Shown here piece after piece: positions 1,933 to 21,373 of a DNA stretch of 24,000 nucleotides; the first letter of the stretch is position 1, and every line of letters begins with the position of its first letter. Origin of the DNA: Desulfobacteraceae bacterium (GTDB taxonomy: Bacteria; Desulfobacterota; Desulfobacteria; Desulfobacterales; JAUWMJ01); contig JAUWOH010000005.1 in the NCBI GenBank assembly GCA_030612225.1, positions 1-24,000 on the forward strand, in the 5' to 3' direction. The position numbers and the translations under genes were made by a program. The notes beneath the pieces were generated by a model that searched no databases, was not told where the DNA came from, and was given only the letters and a program-made list of their open reading frames with translations.

Positions 1933-2115
1933 GCATCACCGATTTGTTAAAATGGTTCTCACTTATTAAATTATTTATTTTTTAGCGAAAACCTCGCAAG
2001 CATGTTTCAGGGGTCAGGTTTCAGGTGGCAGTAGTAAGAAGCGAATTAGCTGACACCTGAACACTGAAACCTGAAACCAAAAAGTCTTGGAAAGCCATTA
2101 ACAAACTGGTAATGC
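1933..2115. repeat. Nested inverted repeat element
   Basis: The outer arms are GCATCACCGATTTGTTAA (1933-1950) and TTAACAAACTGGTAATGC (2098-2115), 15/18 complementary. The inner arms are 2004-2027 and 2054-2077, built of GTTTCAGG-type units. Confidence 0.7.
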
Positions 2116-2411
2116 ACCCTTAAAAATACCGACATGACCATGCGTGTATCACACTCTCAACATTTGGGTATATCTTCCCTTTGAAGGCAGATTATCTCTG
2201 TATGCTTAAACTTAGGGCATCACTTCAACTGGTTTTTGTTTATCCCGCATGTTCACACTACTTTGATTACATTCTCTTTAGCACAATAATTTAAAATCGC
2301 AAGATGTTTTTTCAAAATCGGTATAGAAGCAAGCAGGGATTAATACCTACAACGCAACTTACCAGCATTATTTAGCAACAACTTCTTTTTGTGTCATTCG
2401 ATATTGTTGCT

Positions 2412-2530
2412 GGTTACGTGTTTCGGGTTGCGGGGTATAAAAAATGATTATTTTTTTTAAAACTCGCCTGTCTGCGTGCGATCACGCACAGGCAGGCAAC
2501 CATCAACTCGTAACTCGAAACACTTACGAG
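2412..2530. repeat. Nested inverted repeat element with central GC-rich hairpin (module M5)
   Basis: The arms are 2412-2435 (GGTTACGTGTTTCGGGTTGCGGGG) and 2504-2530 (CAACTCGTAACTCGAAACACTTACGAG), which are imperfectly complementary. The central hairpin at 2466-2497 recurs in inverted orientation at 21137-21164. Confidence 0.65.
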
Positions 2531-2616
2531 ATAGCCAAACAAGCAATTGAAAAGGCACATTATGATTAGCGATAAATATCTTTGTAGAGCTATACACCCT
2601 CTGAGAAACGTTTACC

Positions 2617-2646
2617 TTGACACAAATGTTGATGGAAAGCTATAAA
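2617..2646 (+). promoter_or_regulatory. Candidate sigma70-type promoter for pfp
   Basis: TTGACA (2617-2622), an 18-nt spacer, then TATAAA (2641-2646). It would give an ~80-nt leader. Confidence 0.45.
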
Positions 2647-2679
2647 GGCTGGGAAGCTGGAAGGTTGGGAGGTTGGGGG
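2647..2679 (+). other. G-run tract (7 runs of G2-G5 in 33 nt, 8-nt periodicity) in the predicted pfp leader
   Basis: The sequence is GGctGGGaagctGGaaGGttGGGaGGttGGGGG. I found no complementary C-rich partner in the same spacer. Confidence 0.7.
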
Positions 2680-2730
2680 CTGTAAAACCGGGATGGCCAA
2701 AAATCAACATTAAAAAGATGGAGGATATCG

Positions 2731-4818
2731 ATGCCGGTAAAAAAATCTGTAAGCATTGAGAAGCTTTTGGATAATGCTAAAGTTAAGGGTGTAACTGATA
2801 ACATTAACCGGGAAGTAATCGAAAGAAGAGAAAGCATTCCGCCAAAGTGTGGTGTTTTTTTAAAAGATTATACAATGTTAAATGAGGATTTGGACTACAA
2901 TTTTGACATTGGTAAAGAAGCAACTAAAAGCCTTCCAAAGATAATTAAAAATAAGGTTCAAAAGGTTATTGGTATCGATTCTCCTGACGAATCTTTTAAA
3001 AAAGAATACTGCAAAAGGCGCAATATCGGTCTTGTATTTTCCGGCGGGCCAGCCCCTGGAGGACATAACGTTATTGCAGGGCTCTATGATGCAGCAAAAA
3101 AAGCAAATCAAAATTCAAAAATATACGGCTTTTTGCTTGGTCCTGACGGGATAATTGAAAACGAGGCTGTTGAGTTGACCGACGATATTGTGGATACATA
3201 CAGAAACCTGGGCGGTTTTGGTATGATCAAGACAGGCAGAACAAAAATTGATACGGACGAGAAAATGGCACTTTCCAGAGAAACCTGTAAGCAGCTTGAG
3301 CTTGATGCTATAGTCATCGTGGGCGGAGATGATTCAAACACAAATGCTGCATTTCTTGCCCAGGAGATGTTTGAAGACGGTATTCAGGTTATTGGTGTTC
3401 CGAAAACAATTGACGGAGATATCCAGGTAAGAGACGCAGACGGCCAAGTTTTATGTGCCATATCATTTGGCTTTCATACAGCAGCCCGGTCCTTTGCCAA
3501 TTCAATAGGAAACCTGTGTACAGACAGCGGTTCTGATGTCAAATACTGGCACATCTGCAAAGTTATGGGACGGGTAGCAAGTCACCTCGCGCTTGAGGTT
3601 GCCCTCCAGACTCATGCGAATATTACCCTTATCGGAGAGGATCTTGCCGACTATAAGGACAAAGAGAGAATCAAAAGGGCTGAAAAAGAAAACACTGTGG
3701 ATTATACCGCATACGGTATGACACTTCGGCATCTTTCCCGCTTGATATGTAACGGCATTGTCAGGAGAGCGGCTGTGGGTAAAAATCACGGCGTAATAGT
3801 CATCCCCGAAGGCGTACTGGAATTTATAAACGAAATACAGGTTTTTATTATAAAGCTTAGTACAATCATTGCAGAGTATAATAGATCCCATGATACAAAT
3901 TTTCATTCCCACTTTCCTTTGCGTAAGGACAAGCTGAACTACTTAAGAGGGCTTGCCCGACGTTCACGGGAGGATGAATCTTTTACGGTATGGAACACCA
4001 GGGATGATGACCTGTTTAATGTTATCCCGGCATTTTTTCAGGAGGGGCTCCTCACAGAAAGGGACAGTCATGGAAATTTCCAGTTTTCGCAGGTTGAAAC
4101 CGACAAAATTATTATGGGACTGGTTAAGGATTACCTCAATATTTTAAAGGAAAAAGGTGTGTATAAAATAGGAATTAAAAAATCCTATTACAAAAAGGCT
4201 CTTCAAAAAGAAGAGCTTGATCCGGATTCTTTCGGCCCGGTTATCTTTAAGAACTACATCGATGCTGATTTTCTGCTTGTTAAACCATCAATAGTATCCA
4301 TAAAAACTCTTAAAAAGGCTCTTGTAAGGGAATGCATAATAGATAAAGATGAAAAAATTCCTGTTTCGATTGAAAATATTTACAAAAAATCAGTCCCAAA
4401 TTTCAAAACCCAGACTCATTTTTACGGCTATGACGGCAGGGGAAATGATCCAACCCGGTTTGACTGTAATTACACATACAACCTGGGACTGACTGTATTC
4501 AGTTTAATAGCTAACAAAGCCACAGGACAAATGGCTGCCATTAAGAATTTGGATCTTGATTTTTCAAAGTGGGAACCTGTGGGAATACCGATTGCACCTC
4601 TGATGCACCTTGAGGAAAGAAAGGGAAAACTGGCACTGGTATTGGAAAAAAGTATTGTGGATATAAATTCGAATTCTTTCAGAATTGTGAAGGCTTTAAG
4701 AGAAAAATGGCTCGCAGCTGAGCCAGGGGAGGACAACTACAGACGGCCGGGTCCTATACGCTTTACAGGAAAAAGTGAGGAGGACAGACCGATAACTCTT
4801 GAGTTGAATGCTATTTAA
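2731..4818 (+). CDS. pfp: Diphosphate (PPi)-dependent 6-phosphofructokinase, long form
   Basis: 695-aa ORF with SD GGAGGA at 2720-2725. PFK motifs are present: GLVFSGGPAPGGHNVI, IVGGDDSNTNA, GVPKTIDGD and HFYGYDGRG. The Asp in GGDD and the Lys in PKTIDGD are the residues established as discriminating PPi- from ATP-dependent enzymes. Confidence 0.85.
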   Translation: MPVKKSVSIEKLLDNAKVKGVTDNINREVIERRESIPPKCGVFLKDYTMLNEDLDYNFDIGKEATKSLPKIIKNKVQKVIGIDSPDESFKKEYCKRRNIGLVFSGGPAPGGHNVIAGLYDAAKKANQNSKIYGFLLGPDGIIENEAVELTDDIVDTYRNLGGFGMIKTGRTKIDTDEKMALSRETCKQLELDAIVIVGGDDSNTNAAFLAQEMFEDGIQVIGVPKTIDGDIQVRDADGQVLCAISFGFHTAARSFANSIGNLCTDSGSDVKYWHICKVMGRVASHLALEVALQTHANITLIGEDLADYKDKERIKRAEKENTVDYTAYGMTLRHLSRLICNGIVRRAAVGKNHGVIVIPEGVLEFINEIQVFIIKLSTIIAEYNRSHDTNFHSHFPLRKDKLNYLRGLARRSREDESFTVWNTRDDDLFNVIPAFFQEGLLTERDSHGNFQFSQVETDKIIMGLVKDYLNILKEKGVYKIGIKKSYYKKALQKEELDPDSFGPVIFKNYIDADFLLVKPSIVSIKTLKKALVRECIIDKDEKIPVSIENIYKKSVPNFKTQTHFYGYDGRGNDPTRFDCNYTYNLGLTVFSLIANKATGQMAAIKNLDLDFSKWEPVGIPIAPLMHLEERKGKLALVLEKSIVDINSNSFRIVKALREKWLAAEPGEDNYRRPGPIRFTGKSEEDRPITLELNAI

Positions 4819-4821
4819 CTG

Positions 4822-4975
4822 AGGGGTCGGGGAGTTTTTCAGTCTCCGCTATGTTCGTATGAGGGAAAGCCCTATCGCTCGGGCGATAGGGCTTTCCCTC
4901 ATACGAACCGCTGAATATCAATAAAGCGCTAACAGTTTACCAAAATGGCCTTTGGGGAAAAACTCCCCGACCCCT
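4822..4975. repeat. Perfect double-nested palindrome directly after the pfp stop
   Basis: The outer stem is 19 bp and perfect (4822-4840 / 4957-4975). The inner hairpin is 26 bp and perfect (4853-4878 / 4883-4908) with a 4-nt loop, TCGG. Confidence 0.9.
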
Positions 4976-5091
4976 TATTTAACTTACGGTATTGTCTTTT
5001 GTCCGGTAATCAAGACGCTATTCATGTTTTCCATAGCATTTTTTGTAACCATATTCCTTTTTTGTCTGACCATTGCAAGCGGAGCGAATGA

Positions 5092-5850
5092 ATGTTCACA
5101 AGAGCCATTGTAAGAAAGCCTGGAAAAAACATTGCAGAGGGTATTACCACGGCCAACCTGGAACAACCTGACTATGACAAAGCCATTGACCAGTTTGGTG
5201 CCTATATCAAAACCCTTAAATCTTTTGGTCTGACCGTGGACGTTATCGAGTCATCCCCTGTTTATCCGGATGCACATTTTGTTGAAGATACAGCGGTTGT
5301 GACACCGGATATTGCGGTAATAACCAACCCGGGTGCTGCAGCAAGAAACGGAGAACAGCTCGATATCGAACCTGTTTTGAAAAAGTATAGAAATATCGCT
5401 CACATCAAAAACCCCGGGACCGTAGATGGGGGCGATGTGCTGATGGTTGGCAACCATTTTTTCATCGGTATCTCGGACAGAACCAACGAAAAAGGAGCCC
5501 AACAGCTTGGCAACATCCTGGCATCATACCGAAATACATGGACGACAATTCCTGTTGATGTAGGACTTCATTTCAAATCAAGCGTGAATTATGTCGGTAA
5601 AAACACCTTGTTGGTAACACCGGATTTCGCCGACCATCCGGCACTGGCTTCCTATGAAAAAATCATGGTAGGATCAGGCGAAGACTATGCCGGCAATACC
5701 TTGCTAATCAACAACAAACTGATTGTTCCAAAAGGCTTTCCCGAAACCAGAAAAAAACTTGAAAGGCTTAAACTGGACATCGTTGAACTGGACATGAGCG
5801 AGTTCAGAAAAATGGATGGGGGGTTGACCTGTCTTTCCATCCGGTTTTAG
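5092..5850 (+). CDS. NG,NG-dimethylarginine dimethylaminohydrolase (DDAH; amidinotransferase superfamily)
   Basis: 252-aa ORF with end-to-end resemblance to bacterial DDAH as I recall it. Shared elements include an N-terminal MF..AIVRKPG...PDYDKA, then FVEDTAVV, PGTVDGGDVLMVGNHFFIGISDRTN, and the C-terminal catalytic-Cys motif MDGGLTCLSIRF. SD GGAG lies just upstream. Confidence 0.85.
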   Translation: MFTRAIVRKPGKNIAEGITTANLEQPDYDKAIDQFGAYIKTLKSFGLTVDVIESSPVYPDAHFVEDTAVVTPDIAVITNPGAAARNGEQLDIEPVLKKYRNIAHIKNPGTVDGGDVLMVGNHFFIGISDRTNEKGAQQLGNILASYRNTWTTIPVDVGLHFKSSVNYVGKNTLLVTPDFADHPALASYEKIMVGSGEDYAGNTLLINNKLIVPKGFPETRKKLERLKLDIVELDMSEFRKMDGGLTCLSIRF

Positions 5851-5916
5851 CCGAAATTTCTTTTATTTATTGAGCTTTGACAAAAGGCGTGTAATACTTT
5901 GGGACTATAACATATT

Positions 5917-6073
5917 TGATGAATTCGTAAAAAGTCGAATTCATCAGGTTTTAGGTGTTAAGTTTTAGGTTTTAAGTTAATGATATTATCTGTTTTAACA
6001 GAGACTTAAAACTTAAATCCTAAAACTTAAAACGTTTCGTAAAAAGTGGTTTTTTACTTTTTACGAAACCATC
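5917..6073. repeat. Composite palindromic element between the convergent DDAH and CBS-ACT genes
   Basis: Hairpin 5917-5927 / 5936-5946 is 11 bp. The tandem-unit arms are 5947-5978 / 6004-6033. Hairpin GTTTCGTAAAAAGT (6034-6047) / ACTTTTTACGAAAC (6056-6069) is 14 bp; on the minus strand it is followed by a T-rich run. The M4 core TTCGTAAAAAGT is present three times. Confidence 0.85.
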
Positions 6074-6077
6074 GAGG

Positions 6078-6683
6078 TTAATCCATGGCATCCGGCACTT
6101 CAAAACCGCTGTCTTCAAGAGCTTTTTTTATAATATCCGTTTTGCAGACAGAAAGCCTAAAATAGTATATTCGTTTGCTTGTTTGCTGAGCCGCCATCCC
6201 AACATTAATTATATCTCCGCCATTGTCATTGATAATCTGCAAGGCCTTTCTGAATAATCCGGGTTCATCTTTTACCTCAACATCTATACGTGAACTTGCG
6301 GTAAGAATGCCCATCATATCGATAAAAGTCCGAAGTATATCCGATTCAGTTATTATGCCTACAAGCTTATTTTTTTTAACTACCGGGATGCCGCCTATCT
6401 TGTGCTTGTAAATAAGCTGTGCCGCGATCTCTATATCACTATCAGGATCTACGGTTATCGGTTTTTTTATCATTAGATCTGTCAAAGTAAGGTCTCCCAC
6501 CATGGCAGGGATAAGGCCCTGTTTTAAATCAGCAAGTGTTAGAAAACCCTTCAGTATCTTTTTTTGTGAAACAACAGGCAGGTGCCGAATGGAGTTTACT
6601 TTCATAAGTTCAATAGCATCACTGACAGAAGCTTTTTCCGTGATAGTGATCGGGTCCGGAATCATTAAGGCATTGATTTTCAT
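6078..6683 (-). CDS. CBS-pair plus ACT domain protein (AcuB-like)
   Basis: 201-aa ORF with two CBS repeats (..IRHLPVV.. and ..IGGIPVVKKNKLVGIITESDILR..) followed by an ACT-like C-terminal domain. Its start lies 18 nt after the ahbD stop and has SD AAGGA, so cotranscription is predicted. Confidence 0.8.
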   Translation of the reverse strand: MKINALMIPDPITITEKASVSDAIELMKVNSIRHLPVVSQKKILKGFLTLADLKQGLIPAMVGDLTLTDLMIKKPITVDPDSDIEIAAQLIYKHKIGGIPVVKKNKLVGIITESDILRTFIDMMGILTASSRIDVEVKDEPGLFRKALQIINDNGGDIINVGMAAQQTSKRIYYFRLSVCKTDIIKKALEDSGFEVPDAMD

Positions 6684-6701
6684 AACGCGATATCCTTGGT
6701 T

Positions 6702-7799
6702 TCAAGTTGAAACTGGTTGATAATTACAAAGGGGCTCTTCGGCCAGGAAATCACCGGTGGCTTCATAGGCCCTTGCCCGGCATCCACCACAAACTCTTTT
6801 AAACTCACATTTTCCGCACTTTCCCTTCAGTTTATCATAATTGCGCAGAGATAGAAAGGTATCTGAATTATTCCATATTGTGGCAAAAGAATTTTTTGTA
6901 ACATCGCCGCAATTTAAATCCAAAAATCCGCATGGCTGAACAACTCCTGTGTGTGAAATAAAACAGAACCCGATACCACCCAGACACCCCCGGGTTACGG
7001 CATCCAGACCATGTGATTTGAATGTGACGGACTTGTTTTCTTTTTTTGCCCTTTGTCTGAGTATCCGGTAGTAATGTGGAGCACATGTCGCTTTCAGTTG
7101 CAGGGGAGTTGTTTCTCTCTGGTCATAAAACCAGTTCAATGTATTTTCATATTCATCTGCCGTAATCTCCTGATCTACAATATATTTTCCTCTGCCGGTA
7201 GGCACAAGGAGAAAAATATGATGGGCGACAGCGCCAAGTTTTATGGCAAGATCCTGGATTTTTGGAATTTGATCAAGATTTGTCTTTGTAATCGTAGTGT
7301 TTATCTGAAATTCAACACCTGCTTGCTTTGCCAGTTTGATTCCGTTTAGAGCGCCTTCAAAAGCCCCCTTAACCCCGCGGAAGCTGTCATGGCTTTCTGC
7401 TGTAGCACCATCTAAGCTGATACTTATCCTTTTAATGCCGGAATCGGCCATTTGTTCGGCATAAGCTTCGGTTATCAAAGTACCGTTAGGCGCCATAACC
7501 ATCCTGAGACCTTTGCCCGTGCCATATTTTGCAATATTAAAAATATCAGGACGCAGCAAAGGTTCACCACCTGTAAGTATGACAATCGGTTCACCTACAA
7601 GGGCAATTTGATCCAGAAGACGAAAAGAGGCCTGAGTGTCAAGCTCCCCGGCGTACGGGCCTTTTGTTGCCGATGCCCGGCAGTGTACACAGGTCAGGTT
7701 GCAGTTGCGTGTAGTTTCCCATGCAACAAGTCGAAGGGTTGCTTCTTTTTTCTCGCTGTGTGGATGAGATGGTTTTTTATGTTCAGTTTTTTTTATCAT
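6702..7799 (-). CDS. ahbD: Radical SAM/SPASM heme synthase of the alternative pathway, AhbD (NirJ1-like)
   Basis: 365-aa ORF. It has the radical SAM motif CNLTCVHC within LRLVAWETTRNCNLTCVHCRA. It also has a C-terminal SPASM-type Cys cluster (CGFLDLNCG...CGKCEFKRVCGGCRARA...PLC). Clustering with hemB and a second NirJ-type gene supports the call. Family membership is confident; the AhbD-versus-AhbC assignment is from memory of N-terminal patterns. Confidence 0.65.
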   Translation of the reverse strand: MIKKTEHKKPSHPHSEKKEATLRLVAWETTRNCNLTCVHCRASATKGPYAGELDTQASFRLLDQIALVGEPIVILTGGEPLLRPDIFNIAKYGTGKGLRMVMAPNGTLITEAYAEQMADSGIKRISISLDGATAESHDSFRGVKGAFEGALNGIKLAKQAGVEFQINTTITKTNLDQIPKIQDLAIKLGAVAHHIFLLVPTGRGKYIVDQEITADEYENTLNWFYDQRETTPLQLKATCAPHYYRILRQRAKKENKSVTFKSHGLDAVTRGCLGGIGFCFISHTGVVQPCGFLDLNCGDVTKNSFATIWNNSDTFLSLRNYDKLKGKCGKCEFKRVCGGCRARAYEATGDFLAEEPLCNYQPVST

Positions 7800-7880
7800 T
7801 TTTTAAAGTGAAGAATCTTGGCCCGAAGGCCGTAACATTGATTTATCTCTCGAAGGTGCTGTCAGATATACTATGTTTTA

Positions 7881-8075
7881 AGTGACTAAAGTGTCTAAAG
7901 TGAACTAAAGTGACTAAAGTTAAGGAATTCTGTCTATTTTATAAAAAAGATGGCTTGCCGGGGCGTCTTGTCAAGGCGTAGCTTAAAAGCGTAGACTGAA
8001 GCCAAAGGCGAAGCCTGGAGCGGAGCGACACCACAACTTTAGGCACTTTAGACACTTTAGTTCACTTTAGACACT
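7881..8075. repeat. Long-armed palindromic element enclosing module M1 (7962-8014), between hemB and ahbD
   Basis: The ~40-nt arms, 7881-7920 and 8037-8075, are each made of four GTGNCTAAA / CTTTAGNCA units with a 9-10-nt period. They are complementary except for 1-2 nt per unit. Confidence 0.85.
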
Positions 8076-8108: not shown

Positions 8109-8135
8109 CCACGCATAAAGTACGTGGTTTTAAAA
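8109..8135 (+). repeat. Module M3 copy (CCACGCA..GTGGTTTTAAAA)
   Basis: CCACGCATAAAGTACGTGGTTTTAAAA here matches CCACGCACAATGTGGTTTTAAAA at 15249-15271. Both copies lie downstream of an M1 copy in the same orientation. Confidence 0.7.
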
Positions 8136-9121: not shown

Positions 9122-9167
9122 GATATTGTCCTCTTTTTGGAAAAAATGAGTAAACTAAAATTGTAAG

Positions 9168-9277
9168 CGTTCACGGAACGTTGAAATTAGAAATTGGAAA
9201 TTTGGCTTTCAACTCGTAAACGCGTTTCATCTCTCCCGAATTTCTACTTTCTAATTTCAAGTTTCAAGCCGTGAACG
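9168..9277. repeat. Palindromic element between ahbC and hemB
   Basis: The outer stem CGTTCACGG (9168-9176) / CCGTGAACG (9269-9277) is 9 bp. The inner arms, 9181-9205 / 9236-9267, are built of GAAATTN heptamer units and are 22/25 complementary in the best register. Confidence 0.85.
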
Positions 9278-9278
9278 G

Positions 9279-10457
9279 CTACTTTATTTCATCATCAGTA
9301 AGATAACAAGCCGGATCCGGCGCCCACACATCTCCGGTCACAGCTTCAGCACGAACCCTGAAATTGCCTGCACAGATATCGAGCCATTTGCACCCTGCGC
9401 ACCTGTCTTTCACATGCTTTTTCTTTTCCTTGAGCTTTTTCATAAGAGGTTCTGACGTGTCTGTCCAGATTTCGGAAAACGGGCGGGCCTTGATGTTCCC
9501 AAAACTGTAATGACGCCAGAATTGATCGGCGTAAACTTCACCATCCCAGCTAATACACCCTATGCCTCTTCCTGAATTATTTCCTTCATTCATATTGAGA
9601 AGTTCGAGAACCTCTTTTGCACGCGAAGGATTTTCTTTTAGAAGCCTCAAATACAGGTATGGACCGTCTGCATGATTATCAACGGTTAAAACTTCTTTTG
9701 GTTTTCCCTTTTCATGCAGCGCTTTTGTTCGATCAATTATAAGGTCAACAGCTTTTCTTGATTCTTCATGGGACAAGTCTTCATCAACAAGTTTTGAGCC
9801 GCGCCCGGCATATACAAGGTGATAAAAGCAGACTCGAGGGATTTCCATATCCTCAAGAAGATCAAATATCTGCGGAATCTCTGCCGCATTGAACTTATTT
9901 ATCGTAAATCTAAGGCCGACTTTTATGCCTGCTGCCTTGCAGTTTTCAATTCCCTTAAGTGCGGATTTAAAAGCTCCTTTAATTCCTCTGAATTTATCAT
10001 TGATCTCCTCCATTCCGTCTATGCTTATACCGACATAGGACAGACCGATCTCTTTCAGTGTTTCGGCCACTTGCCTGGTAATAAGTGTACCGTTTGTTGA
10101 TATCACGGCGCGCATACCTTTTTTTACAGCATAAGCTGCAAGCTCCGGGAGATCCTTTCTAACCAGTGGTTCTCCTCCGGAAAACAAAAGCACCGGTACG
10201 CCGAATTGGGACAGATCGTCAATAAGACGTTTGCCCTCTTCGGTAGACAGCTCGTTGTCAAAGGGAATATCTTTAGCGTGGGCGTAACAGTGAACGCATT
10301 TTAAATTACATCTTCTGGTGATATTCCATACTACCACAGGTTGCTTATCACGGGAGAACTGAAGGAGATGTGATGGCAGCTTAGAAGACATACGTCCATA
10401 GCGAAGGGCATCTGACGGTTCGACTGTGCCGCAGTATAATTTAGAAATTCCGATCAT
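9279..10457 (-). CDS. ahbC: Radical SAM/SPASM Fe-coproporphyrin III synthase of the alternative heme pathway, AhbC (NirJ2-like)
   Basis: 392-aa ORF. The N-terminus MIGISKLYCGTVEPSDALRYG is typical of NirJ2-type proteins as I recall them. The radical SAM motif is CNLKCVHC, and there is a C-terminal Cys cluster (CAGCKWLDICAGNFRVRA...PACY). The gene lies 26 nt downstream of the ClpX-like gene. Confidence 0.65.
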   Translation of the reverse strand: MIGISKLYCGTVEPSDALRYGRMSSKLPSHLLQFSRDKQPVVVWNITRRCNLKCVHCYAHAKDIPFDNELSTEEGKRLIDDLSQFGVPVLLFSGGEPLVRKDLPELAAYAVKKGMRAVISTNGTLITRQVAETLKEIGLSYVGISIDGMEEINDKFRGIKGAFKSALKGIENCKAAGIKVGLRFTINKFNAAEIPQIFDLLEDMEIPRVCFYHLVYAGRGSKLVDEDLSHEESRKAVDLIIDRTKALHEKGKPKEVLTVDNHADGPYLYLRLLKENPSRAKEVLELLNMNEGNNSGRGIGCISWDGEVYADQFWRHYSFGNIKARPFSEIWTDTSEPLMKKLKEKKKHVKDRCAGCKWLDICAGNFRVRAEAVTGDVWAPDPACYLTDDEIK

Positions 10458-12286: not shown

Positions 12287-12514
12287 GGCTCGCGTAAAAA
12301 TAAGTTTGCATTTTAGGCGCATGGATTTAGGTTAGATTCGGAGTCTGCGCTTACCTGTTCGATCCGAGGCTGCAGGTAAGCGAAGACTCCGAAACCACAG
12401 GAATAGCGAACTATTTTGAGGATTTTGGAGTTGAGGATCGGGCAAATCCGGGATGTGCCGCGAAGCAAATGCCCTTGGGGTGCATAAAATATGAAGTTAT
12501 TTTTACGTGAGCCC
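12287..12514. repeat. 228-nt palindromic element upstream of the ClpX-like gene
   Basis: The terminal arms are GGCTCGCGTAAAAATAA (12287-12303) and TTATTTTTACGTGAGCC (12498-12514), 16/17 complementary. The inner 21-bp hairpin, 12337-12357 / 12373-12393, has one mismatch. Module M2 lies at 12457-12484. Confidence 0.85.
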
Positions 12515-14299: not shown

Positions 14300-14413
14300 T
14301 ATTCCACCCTTATAAAGACGTTTTACGGTATTAAAAAATGCAATTAACATAGGTTGATAGCATTGAAAACGATATGAAGCAACTGCCAAAAATTATCGTA
14401 AAGTTGTGATATT

Positions 14414-14446
14414 TTGCTTGCCATACTACGATATGCGTAGTATATT
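14414..14446 (+). promoter_or_regulatory. Candidate higBA promoter with an overlapping palindromic operator
   Basis: TTGCTT (14414-14419), an 18-nt spacer, then TAGTAT (14438-14443); alternatively TATATT (14441-14446). An 8-bp inverted repeat, ATACTACG (14423-14430) / CGTAGTAT (14436-14443), overlaps the -10 box. The ATG is at 14453 with no SD. Confidence 0.45.
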
Positions 14447-14452
14447 TTACGT

Positions 14453-14740
14453 ATGATTAAAACGTGGGCTAACAGTCGCTCTCGCCGTTTTTATGAAGAG
14501 GGGAAAATCTCGAAATTTCGAAGTCTTGATATTGAAGCGGCTGATGAATTGCTCGCAGCCCTTGATGCTGCAACATCTTTACATGATTTAAGCCCGTTAA
14601 AAAGTGTTGGACTACATAAGCTATCTGGTAATAGGGCTGGCCAATGGGCTATGACTGTTAATGGCCCATGGCGTATTTGTTTTCGGTTTAAAAACGGAAA
14701 CGCGTACGGTGTTGAAATTACTGATTACCATAAGGGATAA
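14453..14740 (+). CDS. higB: HigB-type toxin (RelE/ParE superfamily, plasmid maintenance system killer protein)
   Basis: 95-aa ORF. MIKTWANSRSRRFYEEG...LHKLSGNRAGQWAMTVNGPWRICFRFKNGNAYGVEITDYH is the canonical HigB pattern. The toxin-first order followed by the HigA antitoxin is typical of higBA. Confidence 0.9.
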   Translation: MIKTWANSRSRRFYEEGKISKFRSLDIEAADELLAALDAATSLHDLSPLKSVGLHKLSGNRAGQWAMTVNGPWRICFRFKNGNAYGVEITDYHKG

Positions 14741-14745
14741 GCACT

Positions 14746-15027
14746 ATGAAACCTATCCACCCAGGACGTATTTTAAAACGTGAAATGACGGCACGCAATC
14801 TTTCGGCAAACAAGTTGGCACTTGCATTACGCGTTCCTTCAGGGCGCATAACTCAAATTCTTAACGGCAAGCGTGGTATCTCCGCAGAAACAGCTCTGCG
14901 ACTTGGCCAGTATTTTAACAATAGCGCTCAATTTTGGATGAACCTTCAATCAAAATACGATTTAATCACAGTTGAGCAAAATATAGGTGCTAAAGTTATC
15001 GCCGAGGTTGAACAGGCAGTAGCGTGA
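14746..15027 (+). CDS. higA: HigA-type antitoxin (XRE-family HTH)
   Basis: 93-aa ORF. IHPGRILKREM..RNLSANKLALALRVPSGRITQILNGKRGISAETALRLGQYFNNSAQFWMNLQ is the canonical HigA HTH pattern. The start lies 5 nt after the higB stop, with SD AAGGGA. Confidence 0.9.
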   Translation: MKPIHPGRILKREMTARNLSANKLALALRVPSGRITQILNGKRGISAETALRLGQYFNNSAQFWMNLQSKYDLITVEQNIGAKVIAEVEQAVA

Positions 15028-15184
15028 ATGGGAAAGCAGGCTGCCCAGGAAAATATCTGCTGTAAATCATCTCTCTGTGGCCTTCTAAATCGCTACTATA
15101 TCGACAAATAAGCTGCATAATATCATATCGGTCTTTTGTCATTTACTCTATTCATGCTACTTAGAAGGCACAAAGGGCATGTCC

Positions 15185-15271
15185 TGCGTCTTGTCGCGGC
15201 GTAGCTTGGAAGCGAAGTCTGAAGCCGCAGGCGAATAATATACTGAATCCACGCACAATGTGGTTTTAAAA
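15185..15271 (+). repeat. Modules M1 (15185-15235) and M3 (15249-15271)
   Basis: This M1 copy is 45/51 identical to the reverse complement of 21044-21096. Confidence 0.8.
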
Positions 15272-15307
15272 TTGATGAACTCCTAAAAAAGTATCCCAGA
15301 TGGCTAA

Positions 15308-15452
15308 GTAGAAAGTTTCATATACGCCCCGCAGGAAGTGCCCTTGGGGTGCAAGGCGCAACGGTTTTTCAGGAAGGAGGCAATACATGTAGTATGCCGA
15401 GTTTCTGAAAAACCGCTGCAACGCAGTAGATGGGACTTTCTACGACGCCATC
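15308..15452. repeat. Palindromic element with M4-type ends, module M2 and an inner hairpin
   Basis: The ends are GTAGAAAGT (15308-15316) and ACTTTCTAC (15435-15443), continuing as ACTTTCTACGACGCCATC. Compare 6056-6073 ACTTTTTACGAAACCATC. M2 lies at 15326-15353. The inner 11-bp hairpin is 15362-15372 / 15405-15415. Confidence 0.8.
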
Positions 15453-15487
15453 AAAATTGAATATATTATAGATGAAGGAGAAATGAA

Positions 15488-16042: not shown

Positions 16043-16044
16043 AC

Positions 16045-16515: not shown

Positions 16516-16592
16516 GATGGAAATTGCTCCCATAAAAAATTGATGCTAAGTACATTTATTCTTAAATGCGGTTACGTATAATGTTTTATTTT

Positions 16593-16619
16593 CACCGCAA
16601 AGCCGCAAAGCACGCAAAG
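16593..16619 (+). repeat. Short tandem tract CACCGCAAAG-CCGCAAAG-CACGCAAAG
   Basis: Three units with an 8-10-nt period. I saw no complementary partner arm. Confidence 0.7.
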
Positions 16620-16629
16620 AATTATTTTT

Positions 16630-16756
16630 TTATTGCTTTCCGCTGAGAGGGCGGAAAGCAATAAGGAATTCACCCCTTTGATATAAAAACATATAGTTAT
16701 AACAATCTAAACGCTGACTGATTTTCCTTTGCCGTCCTCTCAACGGCAAAGGAAAA
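16630..16756. repeat. Two mirrored 14-bp hairpins with reverse-complementary 7-nt loops
   Basis: Hairpin 1 is 16630-16643 / 16651-16664 with loop TGAGAGG. Hairpin 2 is 16722-16735 / 16743-16756 with loop CCTCTCA. Both stems are perfect but differ in sequence. Confidence 0.9.
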
Positions 16757-16881
16757 AGCTTTTCACCCTGCGCCTCAGCGTCTTGAGCAAAGCCCCGCTT
16801 AGCGGGACAAGCCGGGCGGTAAAAGAAATCTATATAAAATTCGTCATCGAATTAACGAATTAGAGCACTAAGGCTTATGAC

Positions 16882-17355
16882 ATGAAAAAACCGAATCCGG
16901 AACATATAAAATCAATTTGTGACCTCGTAAATATATCTCCGTACCCTTCGCTGCTTTCTATGAAGCTTGTAAATATAGGCATTGGATCTGCGGTAATCGA
17001 AATTTATATTAAAAAAAAGCATATGCAGCTTTTGGGAGCTGTCCATGGAGGCGTTTTAGCATCGCTAATTGATACGGTTGCTTTTTGGGCAGTCTATTAT
17101 GGGATAGAAAATCATGACGCCTGGCTGACATCCGTTGATCTGAAACTCAATTATCTTGCGCCTGCTACTTCTGGAAAGCTAATTGCCAGAGGGCGACAGA
17201 TTAAGGTTGGAGGAAAGCTGTGCTATGCAGAGGCTCAGGTTAATACCGAAGATAACAGGATAATAGCCCATGGAACTGCAACTCTTATGATCATGCCTGA
17301 GTTGAAGATGCCGGCAGGGTTTATTTTTCCCCCAAAATTTATCGAGAAAAAGTAA
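16882..17355 (+). CDS. PaaI-family hotdog-fold thioesterase
   Basis: 157-aa ORF with the characteristic GAVHGGVLASLIDTVAFWAV segment and a size typical of PaaI/YigI-type thioesterases. Confidence 0.8.
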   Translation: MKKPNPEHIKSICDLVNISPYPSLLSMKLVNIGIGSAVIEIYIKKKHMQLLGAVHGGVLASLIDTVAFWAVYYGIENHDAWLTSVDLKLNYLAPATSGKLIARGRQIKVGGKLCYAEAQVNTEDNRIIAHGTATLMIMPELKMPAGFIFPPKFIEKK

Positions 17356-17525
17356 AAAATCCTTGTCCGGAGGGCCAAGTTTTCTAAGGAAAACTAAGGT
17401 ACTGAAAAAAATTGCTTTATTTAAAAAAAAGTGTTGCTTTGTTGTTTTCAGGGTGCTAAGTGCTGCAATTATTAGCTATCTCGAACCTCAATTGCTTTTT
17501 TCCAGTGATTCCGGTTAACATACTA

Positions 17526-17597
17526 GCCTGGGCCGTATACTATTGTTTTGTGTGAGTAAATGTAGCCTCCCACTGATACGGTCCAGGCCTTTTTTTT
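17526..17597 (+). terminator. Intrinsic-terminator-like hairpin followed by T8
   Basis: GCCTGGGCCGTAT (17526-17538) pairs with ATACGGTCCAGGC (17576-17588): 12 Watson-Crick pairs plus one G-U. It is followed by CTTTTTTTT (T-run 17590-17597). The 37-nt loop is unusually large. The hairpin lies between the convergent thioesterase and moaA genes. Confidence 0.45.
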
Positions 17598-17601
17598 GGT
17601 T

Positions 17602-18594
17602 TTAGCCTCCAATTGAAGACATCTGACTTAAAACCTCTGTTGGATTGCTGATTGAAAGGTTGTGGTCGGAAGGCTTGTGGCGTACAGCAGTTAGGAAAAT
17701 ATCAGCCAGCTCTTCATCGGAACATCCTTTTCTTAAAAGGCTCTTTAAATCTTCGTGATGGTCTGATAAAAGGCAGGGTCTTAGTTGTCCGCTTGCAGTT
17801 AATCTTAGTCTGTTGCACCTGTTGCAGAAGTGATGGCTCAAGGCACCTATAAATCCTATTTCTCCCTTTGCCCCTTCAAATTTGTAACGTTCAGCAGGTC
17901 CGTCATTTATACTGTTTTTAACAGGAATAAGTTTTCCGATTGTACTTATGCGTCTTTTTATTTCGGGTACAAGTAACAGTGGACCGTATTTCATGCGAGA
18001 TTTTCCTATGGGCATATACTCGATAAATCTGATATGAAAGGGATATGAAAATGACAGCCTTGCAAAATCTGCAAGTTCATCATCATTAACCCCGCTAAGA
18101 GCAACCATGTTCAGCTTAATCGGATCAAAGCCTTTTTTATGGGCAAGCTCTATCCCTTCCCAGACTTGCTCGAACTTGTCGTGCCCGGTTATTTCCTTAT
18201 ATTTATTTCTGCTCAATGTATCGAGACTTATATTTATCCGTTTTATACCTGCTGCTTTGATTTTCTCAATATTATCTTTGAGGGAAACACCGTTGGTTGT
18301 CAACGCGATATCGCTAAGTCCATCCATATCGGCCAGTCGTTTAAGAAAGTCATAAACGCCTTTTCTGACAAGAGGTTCGCCTCCTGTTATTCTGACTTTG
18401 GAAATTCCGAGGCTAATTCCTACCTTAATAATTCTTATAATTTCTTCATAGCGTAATATTTCGTTGTGGTGAAGTCTTGGAATAAAACCAGGAGGCATAC
18501 AATACATGCATTGCAAATTACAGCGGTCTGTAATTGATATGCGAAGATAGTTAAGGTGTCGGTTATATTTATCGATTAATTTTTGTTTTAGCAA
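17602..18594 (-). CDS. moaA: GTP 3',8-cyclase (molybdenum cofactor biosynthesis protein A)
   Basis: 330-aa ORF. It has YLRISITDRCNLQCMYCMP (radical SAM cluster), a second cluster CNRCNRLRLTASGQLRPCL and the C-terminal GG. The only possible start in the right place is TTG at 18594-18592, 6 nt after the gpgS stop. Confidence 0.9.
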   Translation of the reverse strand: MLKQKLIDKYNRHLNYLRISITDRCNLQCMYCMPPGFIPRLHHNEILRYEEIIRIIKVGISLGISKVRITGGEPLVRKGVYDFLKRLADMDGLSDIALTTNGVSLKDNIEKIKAAGIKRINISLDTLSRNKYKEITGHDKFEQVWEGIELAHKKGFDPIKLNMVALSGVNDDELADFARLSFSYPFHIRFIEYMPIGKSRMKYGPLLLVPEIKRRISTIGKLIPVKNSINDGPAERYKFEGAKGEIGFIGALSHHFCNRCNRLRLTASGQLRPCLLSDHHEDLKSLLRKGCSDEELADIFLTAVRHKPSDHNLSISNPTEVLSQMSSIGG

Positions 18595-18600
18595 TTTATT

Positions 18601-19575
18601 TTAGCCTATATTGAATTTTTCACGATATTCAGGGATGGTTTCTATTGGAGGTCTTTCAAAACATTCTATTTCCAGTTTGTCGGGTTTAATTCTGTCTTTA
18701 ACAAGATTGTATTGAATCATTTCGGAAAAAATGTCTTTTTTCAAATCGATTAGTTCAAGTTTTTCTATGCGGTTAAAAAATGTTTTAAGAATAACAAACG
18801 CCATTTTCCCCAAAGCTTTCGTGTCCTGGTTTCTGTGGATCCGTCTTTCCAGATCCACCTGTGCCATAACATCAAGCCCCCATTTTTCACAAATATCAAG
18901 AATCATGCTCGTTTCAACACCGTATCCGATGGGAAAAGGTATTTTTTCAAATATTTCCCTGAAACCGGCATACTCCCCTGACAGGGGCTGCAATATCTGG
19001 GTTAATTCAGGGAAAAAAAGTGAAAACAAGGGTCTGATAACGAGCTCCGTAACTCTGCCTCCACCGGTGGGCCTGATCTTACTTTTTCCAATGGCGATGG
19101 GCCTGTCGTAAAAGGCCTTGGTATATTTTATATTATCAAAAAGAAGAAGGGGAGCTATGAGTCCATAAACAAACCTGTGGTGAATGTTTTTAATATCCGC
19201 ATCAATATAAACAATAATATCGCCTTTGGTGACGTAAAGCGCTTTCCAGAGGTTTTCGCCTTTTCCTTTAAATTGTTCAAGGTTTGGTAAAATACTGCTC
19301 GCTTCATATACATCTGCGCCAAAAGATTTCGCAATTTCCAGTGTATTATCCTTTGAACCGGAATCTATAACAACGATTTCATCTAGAAGCGGATGACGAG
19401 TCATGAGTTCCGACTTCATAATTACTATTTCTTTGGCAATGGTTTTTTCTTCATTAAGGGTGGGCAGGCACAGAGATATCAAAATATTTTTTTTCTTTTT
19501 TTCTTCAACAAGACGGCTTATATCCGTAAATTCAGAATAATGAAAAGTGTTTTTTTTTAGCCAGCTATCATTCAT
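18601..19575 (-). CDS. gpgS: Glucosyl-3-phosphoglycerate synthase (GT81 retaining glycosyltransferase)
   Basis: There is strong block similarity to mycobacterial GpgS as I recall it. Shared blocks are LPTLNEE.TI, IVVIDSGSKDNT, KGKGENLWKAL..TKGDIIVYIDADI, PTGGGRVTELVIRPL, LQPLSGEYAGFRE, PIGYGVE and RIHRNQ. I prefer ATG 19575 (MNDSW..), which overlaps the upstream stop as ATGAATGA. The track ORF starts at 19593. Confidence 0.75.
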   Translation of the reverse strand: MNDSWLKKNTFHYSEFTDISRLVEEKKKKNILISLCLPTLNEEKTIAKEIVIMKSELMTRHPLLDEIVVIDSGSKDNTLEIAKSFGADVYEASSILPNLEQFKGKGENLWKALYVTKGDIIVYIDADIKNIHHRFVYGLIAPLLLFDNIKYTKAFYDRPIAIGKSKIRPTGGGRVTELVIRPLFSLFFPELTQILQPLSGEYAGFREIFEKIPFPIGYGVETSMILDICEKWGLDVMAQVDLERRIHRNQDTKALGKMAFVILKTFFNRIEKLELIDLKKDIFSEMIQYNLVKDRIKPDKLEIECFERPPIETIPEYREKFNIG

Positions 19576-20731
19576 CACACACTCCGCTGTCAATAGCCAT
19601 AATTACGCCAATGATCTGTGCAATCCCTTTAAACATAGGATCAATTTTTACCTGCGCATTTTTCTGATGATGATTTTCGCCGTTGGTAATTCCCAATGTA
19701 ATTGCAGGTATTTTCCGAGAGAGAAAAATTGAAAGCTCGGATTCACATGGACCTCCTGCCGGGTTAATTTCCAGCTCTTTCATAACTTTTCTTGTGCTTT
19801 TTACAAGAGGATGGTTATATGTTAATGTTGACGCTTTGAGATTGCTTATGGTTTTGAAAGTCAGTTCAACTTCATATTCATGGCTGATGGCTTCGATTAT
19901 ATCTTTTATATCATTGAAAATCAATTTTACCATTTTGTCGGAATCACTTTGTATTTCAAATCCCAATGTTGATTCAAGGGCAATATCTCCATGCTTGAAC
20001 CCGCCGGCAACTTTTCCAATTATCACCCTTGCCCGCGGTCTCTGGGGCAGGCGTAATTTTAATATCTGGTTAATCACTTCGTTTAGTACCAGTATTGCAT
20101 TTGGTTTAAATTTGTGTTTAACGCCATTTAAAGCAGAGATGTTGCATTCGACTTCACATCTCACCATTCCGTCGGAGTAATAGTTGAGCCTGCCAAGCTC
20201 AATCCCCTCAATACAGACCGCTCCTCTTATAGGAGTAGGCCATGTCTTAACAAGGTGACGAACACCTCGCAGATTGCCTTTTCCTATTGATTGAATTACT
20301 CCGGCCAGAACTAAATCCGATTGAAACCGTACTTTGAGTTTACGAAGAATTTCAGGCAGGGAAAGAAGGACGCCAACGCCGACTGAGTTGTCTGTAACTC
20401 CTGGTCCTGTAATCGAATTTTCCTCTACGATAAAATTATGATCAACATCCCTGGCAAAAATTGTATCAATGTGTGCAATGAGAAAAATCGGTGGTTTGGA
20501 GCTTGAAGTTCCCCTGACGATTCCGATTGGATTTCTATAGCCGTCGGTAGTGCATTCATCAACCCGACATTCGGCAAGCCTGTCCATAAAAATTCCTGCG
20601 CGCCTTTTTTCTTTAAACGTAGGAGCGGGAATCTGGCCGATTAATACTATATTTGCGATAATCGTCTCTTTTATGGATTCGATTGTATCGACAAATGACG
20701 GCAGTTTTTCAAGATAATTGTTCATAAACAT
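19568..20731 (-). CDS. M20-family metallopeptidase/deacylase homologue (ArgE/DapE/PepT-like)
   Basis: 387-aa ORF. Motifs present: IFLIAHIDTIF (the HxD metal site), GPGVTDNSVGVG (bridging Asp) and a late NGENHH. The usual catalytic EE dyad seems to be replaced (..LAGVIQSIGKG..), so catalytic competence is uncertain. Confidence 0.6.
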   Translation of the reverse strand: MFMNNYLEKLPSFVDTIESIKETIIANIVLIGQIPAPTFKEKRRAGIFMDRLAECRVDECTTDGYRNPIGIVRGTSSSKPPIFLIAHIDTIFARDVDHNFIVEENSITGPGVTDNSVGVGVLLSLPEILRKLKVRFQSDLVLAGVIQSIGKGNLRGVRHLVKTWPTPIRGAVCIEGIELGRLNYYSDGMVRCEVECNISALNGVKHKFKPNAILVLNEVINQILKLRLPQRPRARVIIGKVAGGFKHGDIALESTLGFEIQSDSDKMVKLIFNDIKDIIEAISHEYEVELTFKTISNLKASTLTYNHPLVKSTRKVMKELEINPAGGPCESELSIFLSRKIPAITLGITNGENHHQKNAQVKIDPMFKGIAQIIGVIMAIDSGVCDE

Positions 20732-20750
20732 TTACTTTTCAATCATATTA

Positions 20751-20849
20751 GACGGTTTCGTAAAAAGTTCAAATTCCCCGCTAAAAAACAGCGGGATAAA
20801 AAGGTCGTGTCCCGCTGAACTTAAGCGGAAGACTTTTTACGAGACTGTC
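20751..20849. repeat. Element with M4 ends enclosing two M6 hairpins
   Basis: The ends are GACGGTTTCGTAAAAAGT (20751-20768) and ACTTTTTACGAGACTGTC (20832-20849), 16/18 complementary. The inner CCCGCT..AGCGG(G) hairpins lie at 20777-20795 and 20811-20828. Confidence 0.85.
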
Positions 20850-20944
20850 ATATTTAATACACTAAAAGACAGCAAAAGGTCAACATATCATTATTTTCAA
20901 ACTTTTCCTTTGAATTCTCTATGACTTTATGGTTGAAATAGACT

Positions 20945-21019
20945 GTGCTCGTTGCTCGTTGCTGGTTGCTCGTTGCTGGATACTCGATGCTCGATAAAAA
21001 ACGAGCAACCAGCAACCAC
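20945..21019. repeat. Heptamer-unit palindrome (GCTCGTT/GCTGGTT units)
   Basis: The left tract, 20945-20979, has five 7-nt units. It forms a 17-bp perfect stem, 20958-20974 / 21000-21016. Confidence 0.85.
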
Positions 21020-21043
21020 TTATACTCAGGGAAAGGCACCCAT

Positions 21044-21215
21044 GCTTCGCCTCCGGCTTCAGTCTACGCTTTTAAGCTACGCCTCGACAAGACGCAGGGC
21101 AAGGAAAGGCACAGAGGCACAAAGGGAATGAACATCGCCTGCCTGTGCGTCGCACACAGACAGGAACATCGAACGTCCAACACGTGTCTTGTCGTAGCAT
21201 TTGCGAAGCCAGATC
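21044..21215. repeat. Module M1 (inverted, 21044-21096), module M5 (21137-21164) and a degenerate direct M1-like copy (21181-21215)
   Basis: The reverse complement of 21044-21096 is 49/53 identical to 7962-8014. M5 matches the reverse complement of 2466-2497, apart from a 3-nt indel and one substitution. Confidence 0.85.
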
Positions 21216-21245
21216 GAATGTTGAATGGAAAAGGGTTCGGTGGTT

Positions 21246-21373
21246 ATTAACCGTGAACCTTGAACCCATGAACCTAGAGCGAAGCGACGGCAGAAGGAAA
21301 AAGTTCACGGTTAATCCCGCTTTCAGCGGGAAACCCTTGAACCCTTGAACGTTGAACCCTGAACCTTGAACCT
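21246..21373. repeat. 12-bp palindrome flanked by direct NTGAAC tandem units running into the SD of the NifX-like gene
   Basis: The palindrome is TTAACCGTGAAC (21246-21257) / GTTCACGGTTAA (21303-21314). The M6 hairpin lies at 21316-21330. Three NTGAAC units lie at 21253-21273 and five at 21337-21371, with a 7-8-nt period. Confidence 0.85.

Follow-up and report, generated by a model that had tools for sequence, protein, structure and literature searches.

Modular mosaic repeats are represented by the BOX elements of Streptococcus pneumoniae and the bacterial interspersed mosaic elements (BIMEs) of E. coli, neither of which is known to have terminal repeats with target duplications. Heterocystous cyanobacteria reportedly carry small dispersed repeats and STRR heptamer repeats; Elhai and co-workers are said to have described in 2008 tiny palindromic units inside other repeats, with insertions inferred from orthologues. 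Prokaryotic MITEs, or miniature inverted-repeat transposable elements, reviewed in 2024, include Correia (Neisseria), the Coxiella QMITEs and Chunjie (Geobacter uraniireducens), which inserts in operons (PMC10969869). In G. metallireducens, paired tandem-heptanucleotide ‘class 3 global regulator binding sites’ were read as IHF/HU-type regulatory sites (Aklujkar et al. 2009, PMC2700814). The IS66 family of insertion sequences (IS) is recognised by a terminal repeat beginning GTAAGCG and by 8-bp direct repeats (PMC11946415, PMC12888890). We report here on a 24,000-nucleotide stretch of a Desulfobacteraceae bacterium (assembly GCA_030612225.1, contig JAUWOH010000005.1, positions 1 to 24,000; hereafter the window), whose long intergenic spacers are rich in hairpin-forming repeats. 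A sequence-only reading had described these as one mosaic family of nested palindromic elements built from six modules, M1 to M6. We consider it probable (about 0.85) that the long spacers are instead packed with several unrelated MITE families, inserted beside and inside one another.

The elements in the window have in common with the reviewed bacterial MITEs that they are short and non-coding, carry terminal inverted repeats and duplications, occur in many intergenic copies, vary in size and are frequently truncated, and that two copies of one family lie in a ribosomal-protein operon, much as Chunjie inserts in operons without destroying them. Their sequences and termini are unrelated to the families named in that review, in single spacers, members of several families are closely stacked and nested, and one family is mosaic by virtue of M2 and M6. 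As the review mentions no Desulfobacterales, IS66-derived, nested or mosaic MITEs, the families here are new, within a MITE concept that they leave unchanged; the density of this selfish DNA is unusual. With BOX elements and BIMEs they share the use of few modules in variable combinations and the formation of stable spacer hairpins; the elements here have terminal repeats and duplications in addition, and there is no sequence relationship. Tiny nested palindromes and abundant tandem heptamers in spacers recall the cyanobacterial repeats, whereas phylum and sequences differ and most elements here are classical MITEs with duplications, only M1, M5 and M2 being akin to the tiny nested units. The closest architectural parallel to the heptamer arrays of the window is that of the G. 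metallireducens class 3 sites, which likewise pair two spacer arrays, 80–110 nt apart and on opposite strands, each made of about five degenerate heptamers in tandem. The Geobacter units (MTYCTGA) are similar to MMCCTGA at window positions 2050-2078, a likeness of architecture and not an established homology. The arrays here differ in being subterminal arms of elements with transposon ends and duplications; by analogy, the paired-heptamer ‘regulatory sites’ of Geobacter may be transposon arms or ends.

The window holds 22 housekeeping genes, among them hemB, two Ahb-type radical-SAM enzymes (rSAM), a clpX-like ATPase, a PPi-type phosphofructokinase (PFK), moaA, a cobA/hemD fusion and a higBA pair. 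It contains no transposase gene, as the sequence-only reading had stated together with the absence of integrase and reverse transcriptase genes. Non-coding DNA was measured at ~4.27 kb or 17.8% of the window, in agreement with the earlier estimate of ~4.4 kb and ~18 percent. Spacers longer than 150 nt number ten and not eleven, although the count of nine occupied ones stands. Local inverted repeats (stem ≥14 nt, complementarity ≥85%, loop ≤200 nt) are 28-fold enriched in spacers, with 10.0 per kb there and 0.36 per kb in genes. Tandem arrays of period 7–9, located with Tandem Repeats Finder (TRF), are nearly all intergenic and paired, five pairs being inverted and one direct. Open reading frames that overlap the elements in the window have no Pfam match; these include 20718-20924 and 20945-21250, rightly suspected of being spurious, which lie in DNA absent from relatives. 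Loci used for comparison carry L numbers. Orthologous spacers were compared in relatives whose flanking proteins are 84–99% identical, the marker identity being that of hemB (L014, GCA_030668395.1, the nearest, 99%; L015 and L016, 95%; L017, 94%) or of the peptidase (L018, 90%; L020, 88%; L019, 84%). Dispersed copies and partner elements were sought in 882 kb of related DNA, and chance similarity was controlled by an all-against-all comparison of the spacers with 100 dinucleotide shuffles.

Of the ten spacers above 150 nt, nine contain lineage-specific inserts that form hairpins and that the corresponding spacers of relatives do not have. The hemB-rSAM spacer measures 344 nt in the window, 19 nt in L015/L016, 183 nt in L014 and 319 nt in L017; the three long versions are mutually unrelated, each with a hairpin of its own. 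Similarly, the MT-clpX spacer is 455 nt long compared with 75 nt in L015/L016, the PFK-SBP spacer 895 nt compared with 482 and 487 nt (the window having two clean additional blocks), the 156aa-4HBT spacer 366 nt compared with 10 nt in L018 and 75 nt in another relative, and the NifX-peptidase spacer 634 nt compared with 217 and 133 nt. The converse is also seen, with the insert in the relative: the NUDIX-MT spacer of L015 has 215 nt where the window has 43 nt, and the clpX-rSAM2 spacer of L017 has 286 nt where the window has 26 nt. The comparison of orthologous spacers that the sequence-only reading had proposed does, then, reveal presence/absence between relatives. Defined or probable elements sum to ~2.6–2.7 kb (a tally of part coordinates), which is ~60% of the non-coding DNA.

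The elements have the features of MITEs: they are ~90–250 nt long (99–245 nt as measured, where MITEs stay below ~600 bp) and non-coding, with terminal inverted repeats, target duplications of fixed length, dispersed copies and insertion polymorphism. At least three families are demonstrated, one ended by M4 (6-bp duplication), one of IS66 type (8 bp) and one ended by TGAGGGGTCGGGG (6 bp). Nesting is observed of an M4-ended MITE in a unit made of M1 and M3, of M5 in a further family (D) and of M1 in the centres of hairpins. The earlier proposal that the elements are mobile, non-autonomous and nested is thus borne out by filled and empty orthologous sites, copies at unlinked loci, and terminal inverted repeats with duplications. 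The checks suggested with it, on copies, orientation and target-site duplications, gave dispersed copies and duplications and no orientation bias.

Members of the M4-ended family have termini GATGnnnTCGTARAAAGT of 18–27 nt and a 6-bp target duplication at AANNTT. Within the window the M4 similarity is borderline (28.4 bits, equal to the 95th percentile of shuffles); M4 was validated all the same, being the inverted repeat at the ends of a true MITE. The full element at 15274-15452 (+) has two left termini (outer and inner), M2, an inner hairpin that is conserved, and a right terminus; it folds as a long hairpin (z −7.0) and is flanked by the duplication AAAATT (15268-15273 and 15453-15458). 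It sits in the tail of the M1+M3 element, and L015 has the uninterrupted target site. Copies 81–93% identical are found at non-orthologous spacers of L015, L017 and L003. These and the window copy share ~105 nt ending in the terminus ...GTAGATGGGACTTTCTACGACGCCATC, and the matching left terminus is M4; their left part is variable, with M2, the CCCGCTAAAAATCAGCGGG module (M6), both, or neither. A short member at 20751-20849 has the ends GACGGTTTCGTAAAAAGT ... ACTTTTTACGAGACTGTC, the M6 module at 20777-20795 and flanks ATATTA / ATATTT; comparison with L018 and with L019 shows it to be inserted precisely, and its module recurs in L015 and L003. Two further elements have an M4-type terminus and interiors different from other copies. 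The first, at 5918-6073, has ends GATGAATTCGTAAAAAGT ... ACTTTTTACGAAACCATC and a nested GTTTTAG-heptamer hairpin (5946-6033); its right junction, adjoining the stop of the CBS gene, is common to L015, in which the interior differs. The second, with M4-like ends, at 12287-12513 (GGCTCGCGTAAAAATAAG / TTATTTTTACGTGAGCC), contains M2 at 12457-12484 and an inner hairpin at 12333-12397, is flanked by CTAAA / CTAAG and lies inside a ~380-nt insert absent from L015/L016; a related copy of 86–94% identity is present in L025.

A metagenome scan with the 21-nt end of the M4-ended MITE as query found at least 120 loci (L021-L140) that match it exactly. The matches listed comprise 125 copies, 124 of them outside long open reading frames. 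Thirty-two of these 125 are too near a contig end for analysis (less than 250 nt upstream or less than 30 nt downstream), as expected since a repeat breaks assemblies. About a quarter of the matches to the terminus are within roughly 100–250 nt of a contig end. Among the matches listed, 25 of 88 distinct copies have a perfect 6-bp direct repeat abutting the GATGnnnTCGTAAAAAGT-type left end, where the background is ~0.2 per offset; these duplications vary in sequence, with the consensus AANNTT (A 94% at position 1, A 81% at position 2, T 58% at position 5 and T 81% at position 6). The modal core is 127 nt, with the outer left terminus 24 nt further out in many copies. M2 was found in 20 and the M6 module in 21 of 90 copies, again among the matches listed, so that M2 and M6 are optional internal modules of this family. 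With 33 bits, the M2 pair noted earlier (24/28 between 12457-12484 and 15326-15353) is of marginal score within the window and gains its standing from these metagenomic copies; its supposed echo at 4945-4957 lies in the terminal repeat of a different element and has to be discarded. For M6, the copies at 20777-20795 and 21316-21330 fit the pattern (two, with 0.01 expected), and those at 16793 and 20811 are looser hairpins. The orientation of M4-ended copies relative to co-directional neighbouring genes is unbiased (16 versus 23), and a strand-specific function of this MITE was rejected on this count. Two copies lie in internal spacers of a ribosomal-protein operon (rplC-rplD ... rplP-rplN; L079 3808-3828 and 8376-8396), and long hairpin elements are therefore tolerated in an essential, highly expressed operon. 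The inverted termini 4.6 kb apart in L079 were considered as an autonomous partner and rejected, as they merely bracket ribosomal-protein genes. No copies of the family were found in viral contigs. The ISDol1 group, with duplications of 6–7 bp, is a possible lead to the IS family behind the families with 6-bp duplications.

The second family is exemplified by the element at 9163-9282, with termini GTAAGCGTTCACGG / CCGTGAACGGCTAC and arms of GAAATTR heptamers. L014 has it in identical form, L015 and L017 lack it, and non-orthologous copies number at least eight. About 25 elements with termini GTAAGCGTTCAC (also given as GTAAGCGTTCACRG) were found in the related DNA, six of them with perfect 8-bp flanking duplications and two with 7/8 matches. 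The window terminus begins GTAAGCG, the relatives having GTAAsCGTTCAC. Because the published IS66 hallmarks, the GTAAGCG terminus and the 8-bp repeat, are both present in the family, we assign the element to the IS66 type. The statement that the repeats could not be placed in any described family is to this extent overturned. The elements differ from IS66-family IS in having no tnpA, tnpB or tnpC, in being only 100–270 nt long and in having tandem heptamers, GTTCANN or GAAATTR, as arms; the 882 kb of related DNA yielded no parent IS. In this family the terminus runs straight into tandem heptamers that repeat its GTTCAC motif, and the arrangement is mirrored in the other arm. Two arrays of CTTGAAC type, at 21249-21275 and 21335-21373, run in the same direction on either side of the hairpin CCCGCTTTCAGCGGG (21316-21330) and consist of the same units as the subterminal arms of IS66-type MITEs in L073, L075, L110 and L114. 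Their segment (21249-21373) is absent from L018/L019 and looks like a decayed IS66-type arm. At least in the IS66-type family, then, what had been regarded as simple-sequence hairpin arms are subterminal repeats of transposon ends.

The TGAGGGGTCGGGG-ended MITE occupies 4820-4977 of the spacer 4819-5091. It has 21–26-bp termini (TGAGGGGTCGGGGAGTTTTTC / GAAAAACTCCCCGACCCCTTA) and a nested perfect 26-bp hairpin (4853-4908), and its fold has a ΔG of −59.1 kcal/mol (z −14.1). The 6-bp duplication TTTAAC (4814-4819 and 4978-4983) includes the PFK stop codon, and the copy in L019, with the duplication ATTAAT, likewise lies at a stop codon; the family has a 6-bp duplication at TTAA-containing stop-codon sites. 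A further dispersed element, of family D (2346-2590, ~245 nt), has GTTNCGN heptamer arms. It is absent from L015 and L017, and copies 73–85% identical occur at the unrelated loci L080, L117 and L027. Since these three copies have no M5, the 30-nt GC-rich palindrome at 2467-2496 (M5 copy a) was inserted in the loop of family D. M5 copy b (21138-21164) is a 27-nt palindrome with a perfect direct repeat AACATCG on its two sides (21131-21137 and 21165-21171), which could be a 7-bp duplication or could reflect insertion of M5 into a heptamer array. The two-copy palindrome proposed as M5 is upheld by its pattern, of which none is expected by chance; the pairwise score is at the 95th percentile of shuffles (28.4 bits).

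Taken as several nested MITE families, the elements would have spread by insertion into AT-rich spacer DNA and into one another. A transposase encoded elsewhere would recognise the element ends, cut or copy the element and insert it at a new site, duplicating a short target. Mobilisation would occur in trans, by an IS66-family transposase for one element type and by other transposases for the rest; unrelated termini together with duplications of 6 and 8 bp imply that no fewer than two transposition machineries are involved. In the arms, the tandem GTTNNNN heptamers would reiterate the terminal motif in subterminal position and plausibly offer the transposase several binding sites. Any consequences for the host, long hairpins in operon transcripts for instance, would be incidental.

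Several observations weigh against this interpretation. In the 882 kb of related DNA no autonomous element with matching termini and duplication was found for the M4-ended or the IS66-type family, and for that reason the transposases are something we only infer. Copy numbers were taken from metagenomes rather than from one genome. The flanks of the window's own IS66-type copy match at only 5/8 positions. M1 and M5 have no convincing terminal repeats or duplications, and M1, with its few copies and its conservation across orders, is unlike what one usually sees in a selfish element undergoing decay. Cleanly defined ends are wanting in the inserts 1929-2116 and 16530-16870 and in most of 20945-21365. 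Many accepted MITE families likewise have no known partner, and the absence of one therefore leaves membership possible.

M1 has to be considered on its own. The three copies proposed from the sequence were recovered at 7963-8018 (+), 15180-15235 (+) and 21040-21101 (−), with 55–77 bits against a shuffle maximum of 30. Copy A (7953-8021, +) is enclosed by arms of CTAAAGTGA 9-mers (7880-7920 and 8036-8075) in a hairpin, 7880-8075, which belongs to ~330 nt of spacer content absent from L015/L016; unrelated hairpin inserts are present there in L014 and L017. Copy B (15177-15239) is part of the M1+M3 element (15167-15273, +), in which it follows GGCACAAAGG and precedes M3 (15249-15271); the unit is also present in L003 and L033, and the L015 version is without the M1 core. 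Copy C (21040-21104, −) is followed by GGCACARA 8-mers on the + strand (21105-21125). M3, whose other copy lies at 8109-8135 (+; CCACGCATAAAGTACGTGGTTTTAAAA), is a small hairpin then a T-run, and its two exact pattern matches, with 0.00 expected, sustain it as a module. The M1 core is ~65 nt long. Its invariant 20-nt block is found in only 13 stretches of a 596-Gb genome collection, mostly in metagenome-assembled genomes (MAGs) of Desulfobacterales with 1–3 copies each; a single Desulfatiglandales MAG contributes two, Akkermansia MAGs another two, and one further stretch is probably a chance match. A profile search gave 23 copies in the related DNA. M1 lies between 9-mer arms in the window, in the centre of an IS66-type MITE in L095, and elsewhere beside GTTGCTS or GAACC heptamers; 9 of 21 copies have an array of period 6–10 within 130 nt, compared with 29 of 300 random positions. 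A 33–35-nt M1 core is present or absent in otherwise homologous units (L095 versus L099; window versus L015), without duplication. The dinucleotides after GTC and after GAAGCC are identical in direct orientation (AA/AA, GC/GC, AC/AC, AG/AG, GG/GG) in about six of ten independent copies (the three of the window and those of L003, L005, L095 and L096 among the ones examined). Base pairing cannot account for this identity, which suggests templated copying or conversion between two direct-repeat units.

Two side observations concern the distribution of M1. In Akkermansia MAGs from ruminant gut (L006 2886-2934 and L007 2118-2180), M1-like sequences have the exact 20-nt block GCGTCTTGTCnnGGCGTAGCTT and include tandem GCGTCTTGTCTCG units; their presence in Verrucomicrobiota MAGs reflects either cross-phylum spread or binning contamination. 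At L073 7762-8027, an IS66-type MITE with a 7/8 duplication has the M1-like centre TTTGTCTCGGCGTAGCTTTCAAGCGAAGCTTGG, a resemblance which hints at a possible origin of M1 from the centre of one lineage of IS66-type MITEs.

These features of M1 could be accommodated if heptamer arms and M1 core formed a functional architecture shared across the Desulfobacterota, as in the paired heptamers of Geobacter, with the arms binding one protein (a transposase, or a domesticated or host factor) and M1 being propagated or maintained in hairpin centres by a templated mechanism other than cut-and-paste. Such a mechanism would explain the lack of target duplication, the conservation across orders and the identical variable dinucleotides; all the same, we think the proposal rather unlikely. 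A direct tie between M1+M3 and the Gmet_R10xx elements of Geobacter, suggested by the resemblance CTTGTSGCGTAGC ... AATCCACG, was rejected by a profile search and shuffle test: the profile built from 12 published Gmet_R1001-1024 ‘short RNA element’ sequences (GRCGTAGCGCTGCTACGCC-centred, ~113 nt) gave no match with E <1, the best local score being 10 where shuffles have a mean of 9.2 (sd 1.3).

It is improbable that the elements serve the host, wholly or in part (the heptamer arrays, M1 and M3, for example), as protein-binding arrays of the kind proposed for the paired heptamers of G. metallireducens, or as small RNAs, transcript stabilisers or terminators, and that they were selected and spread secondarily. 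The core blocks of M1 are invariant across species of different orders, its fold is strand-asymmetric (−13 versus −3 kcal/mol), M3 is a hairpin with a T-run after it, the paired-heptamer architecture recurs in Geobacter, and M4-ended copies are tolerated in the ribosomal-protein operon, all of which would fit a function. On the other hand, near-identical relatives differ in whether their housekeeping operons contain the elements, one and the same spacer is filled by different, unrelated inserts in different relatives, and orientation bias is absent. Promoter-like and terminator-like sites are not above shuffles, and a generic promoter or terminator role was rejected on these counts. Rfam covariance models gave only three sub-threshold chance matches in the window (E ≥0.38), and there is no covariation in the predicted M1 helices, all predicted pairs being invariant; a structured RNA at M1 has the asymmetric fold in its favour and the lack of covariation and of an Rfam match against it.

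The small GC-rich palindromes, namely M5, M6 and the hairpins in 16530-16870, might be independent of the MITEs and represent repetitive extragenic palindromic (REP) or REPIN-type sequences spread by a RAYT, an IS200/IS605-like tyrosine transposase. They are imperfect GC-rich palindromes of 27–35 nt without clear terminal repeats, and REP sequences are such palindromes of 20–40 nt, lacking terminal repeats and duplications and present in tens to hundreds of copies; M5 at 2467-2496 stands in the loop of another element without evident duplication, and the M6 stem recurs widely. We regard this as improbable, given that the 882 kb of related DNA yielded no M5 copies beyond the two, that most M6 matches are a fixed 19-nt module within M4-ended MITEs, that M5 copy b has its perfect 7-nt flanking repeat, and that no RAYT gene was seen within the window. 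For the main elements, the label ‘REP/BIME-like’ is unsuitable, as they have terminal repeats and duplications.

A single mosaic family of non-autonomous palindromic elements, with one mobilisation system and recombining modules, was the original proposal. It holds for M2, M4 and M6, which co-occur in variable combinations in one mosaic element type, and it would also account for a GTTNNNN heptamer design common to many hairpin arms and for the occurrence of M1 inside several kinds of hairpin. It fails on the unrelated termini (GATGnnnTCGTAAAAAGT, GTAAGCGTTCAC, TGAGGGGTCGGGG and CCTACAACGC), on the duplication lengths of 6 versus 8 bp, on M1, M3 and M5 being separate units, and on the all-against-all spacer comparison, in which most inserts are linked by no similarity; we give it very little credence. 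Equally far-fetched is an origin of each hairpin de novo, by replication slippage and fold-back or template-switch repair without transposition, since the same 100–250-nt sequences with defined ends and diverse duplications lie at unlinked loci in different genomes and arm variants are mirrored exactly (7890-7920 and 8045-8075 being 97% complementary over 31 nt), even though the arms are tandem short repeats of a kind that slippage can generate, the M1 core resembles paired duplications of arm units with variable dinucleotides identical in direct orientation, and the insert 1929-2116 has no other copy.

The remaining inserts of the window are less sharply delimited. That in the PFK-SBP spacer at 1929-2116 is a lineage-specific hairpin of 188 nt with inverted tandem heptamers (GTTTCAG at 2004-2026, CTGAAAC at 2050-2078), flanked by the direct repeat CCCTTTAAAAAT (1917-1928) / CCCTTAAAAAT (2117-2127). 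It is missing at the orthologous site of L015 and L017, and the related DNA compared contains no other copy. A composite insert of ~340 nt at 16530-16870 includes several hairpins, at 16624-16670, at 16722-16756 and GTCCCGCTAAGCGGGGC, together with CCGCAAAG 8-mers; it is absent from L018, where the spacer is 10 nt, and parts of it recur in L003, L033, L075 and L129. The GTTGCTS heptamer hairpin at 20946-21018 is absent from L018/L019; arrays like it are found next to M1 in L001 and also in L051 and L108.

Other features of the window stand apart from the inserts or involve whole genes. The sole long spacer without an insert, 17356-17601, is conserved in L018 and L019 and separates the convergent moaA and thioesterase genes; it contains a long conserved hairpin, GGCCTGGACCGTAT ... 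ATACGGCCCAGGC, which probably acts as a bidirectional terminator. A tandem array of the 8-mer AGGCTGGG (2646-2682), directly upstream of the PFK start, is, unlike the other tandem arrays, conserved in L015 and L017 and may be a genuine regulatory or leader feature and not an insert. The higB-higA pair (14453-15027; spacers 14390-14452 and 15028-15487) has no counterpart in L018, which is syntenic and in which NUDIX comes directly after the gene for flavin reductase. The HigB/HigA pair is itself a lineage-specific insertion, one border of which is the M1+M3 unit with its M4-ended MITE. Between the PFK and CBS genes, an amidinotransferase/ADI-like gene (5092-5850) is found in the window only, L015 having a 104-nt spacer and L017 two different genes; the site is a hotspot of variation at the level of both genes and MITEs.

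The analysis adds well-defined MITE families, with termini, duplication lengths and a target motif, from an uncultivated group, one of them IS66-derived with heptamer subterminal arrays. The M4-ended family is a systematic and frequent cause of contig breaks in metagenome assemblies of sediment Desulfobacterales, and the elements yield spurious open reading frame calls; masking them would improve binning and annotation. For the biology of this Desulfobacterales lineage, the elements explain its unusually large and hypervariable spacers, and their insertions at stop codons and in essential operons make them candidates for shaping mRNA processing.

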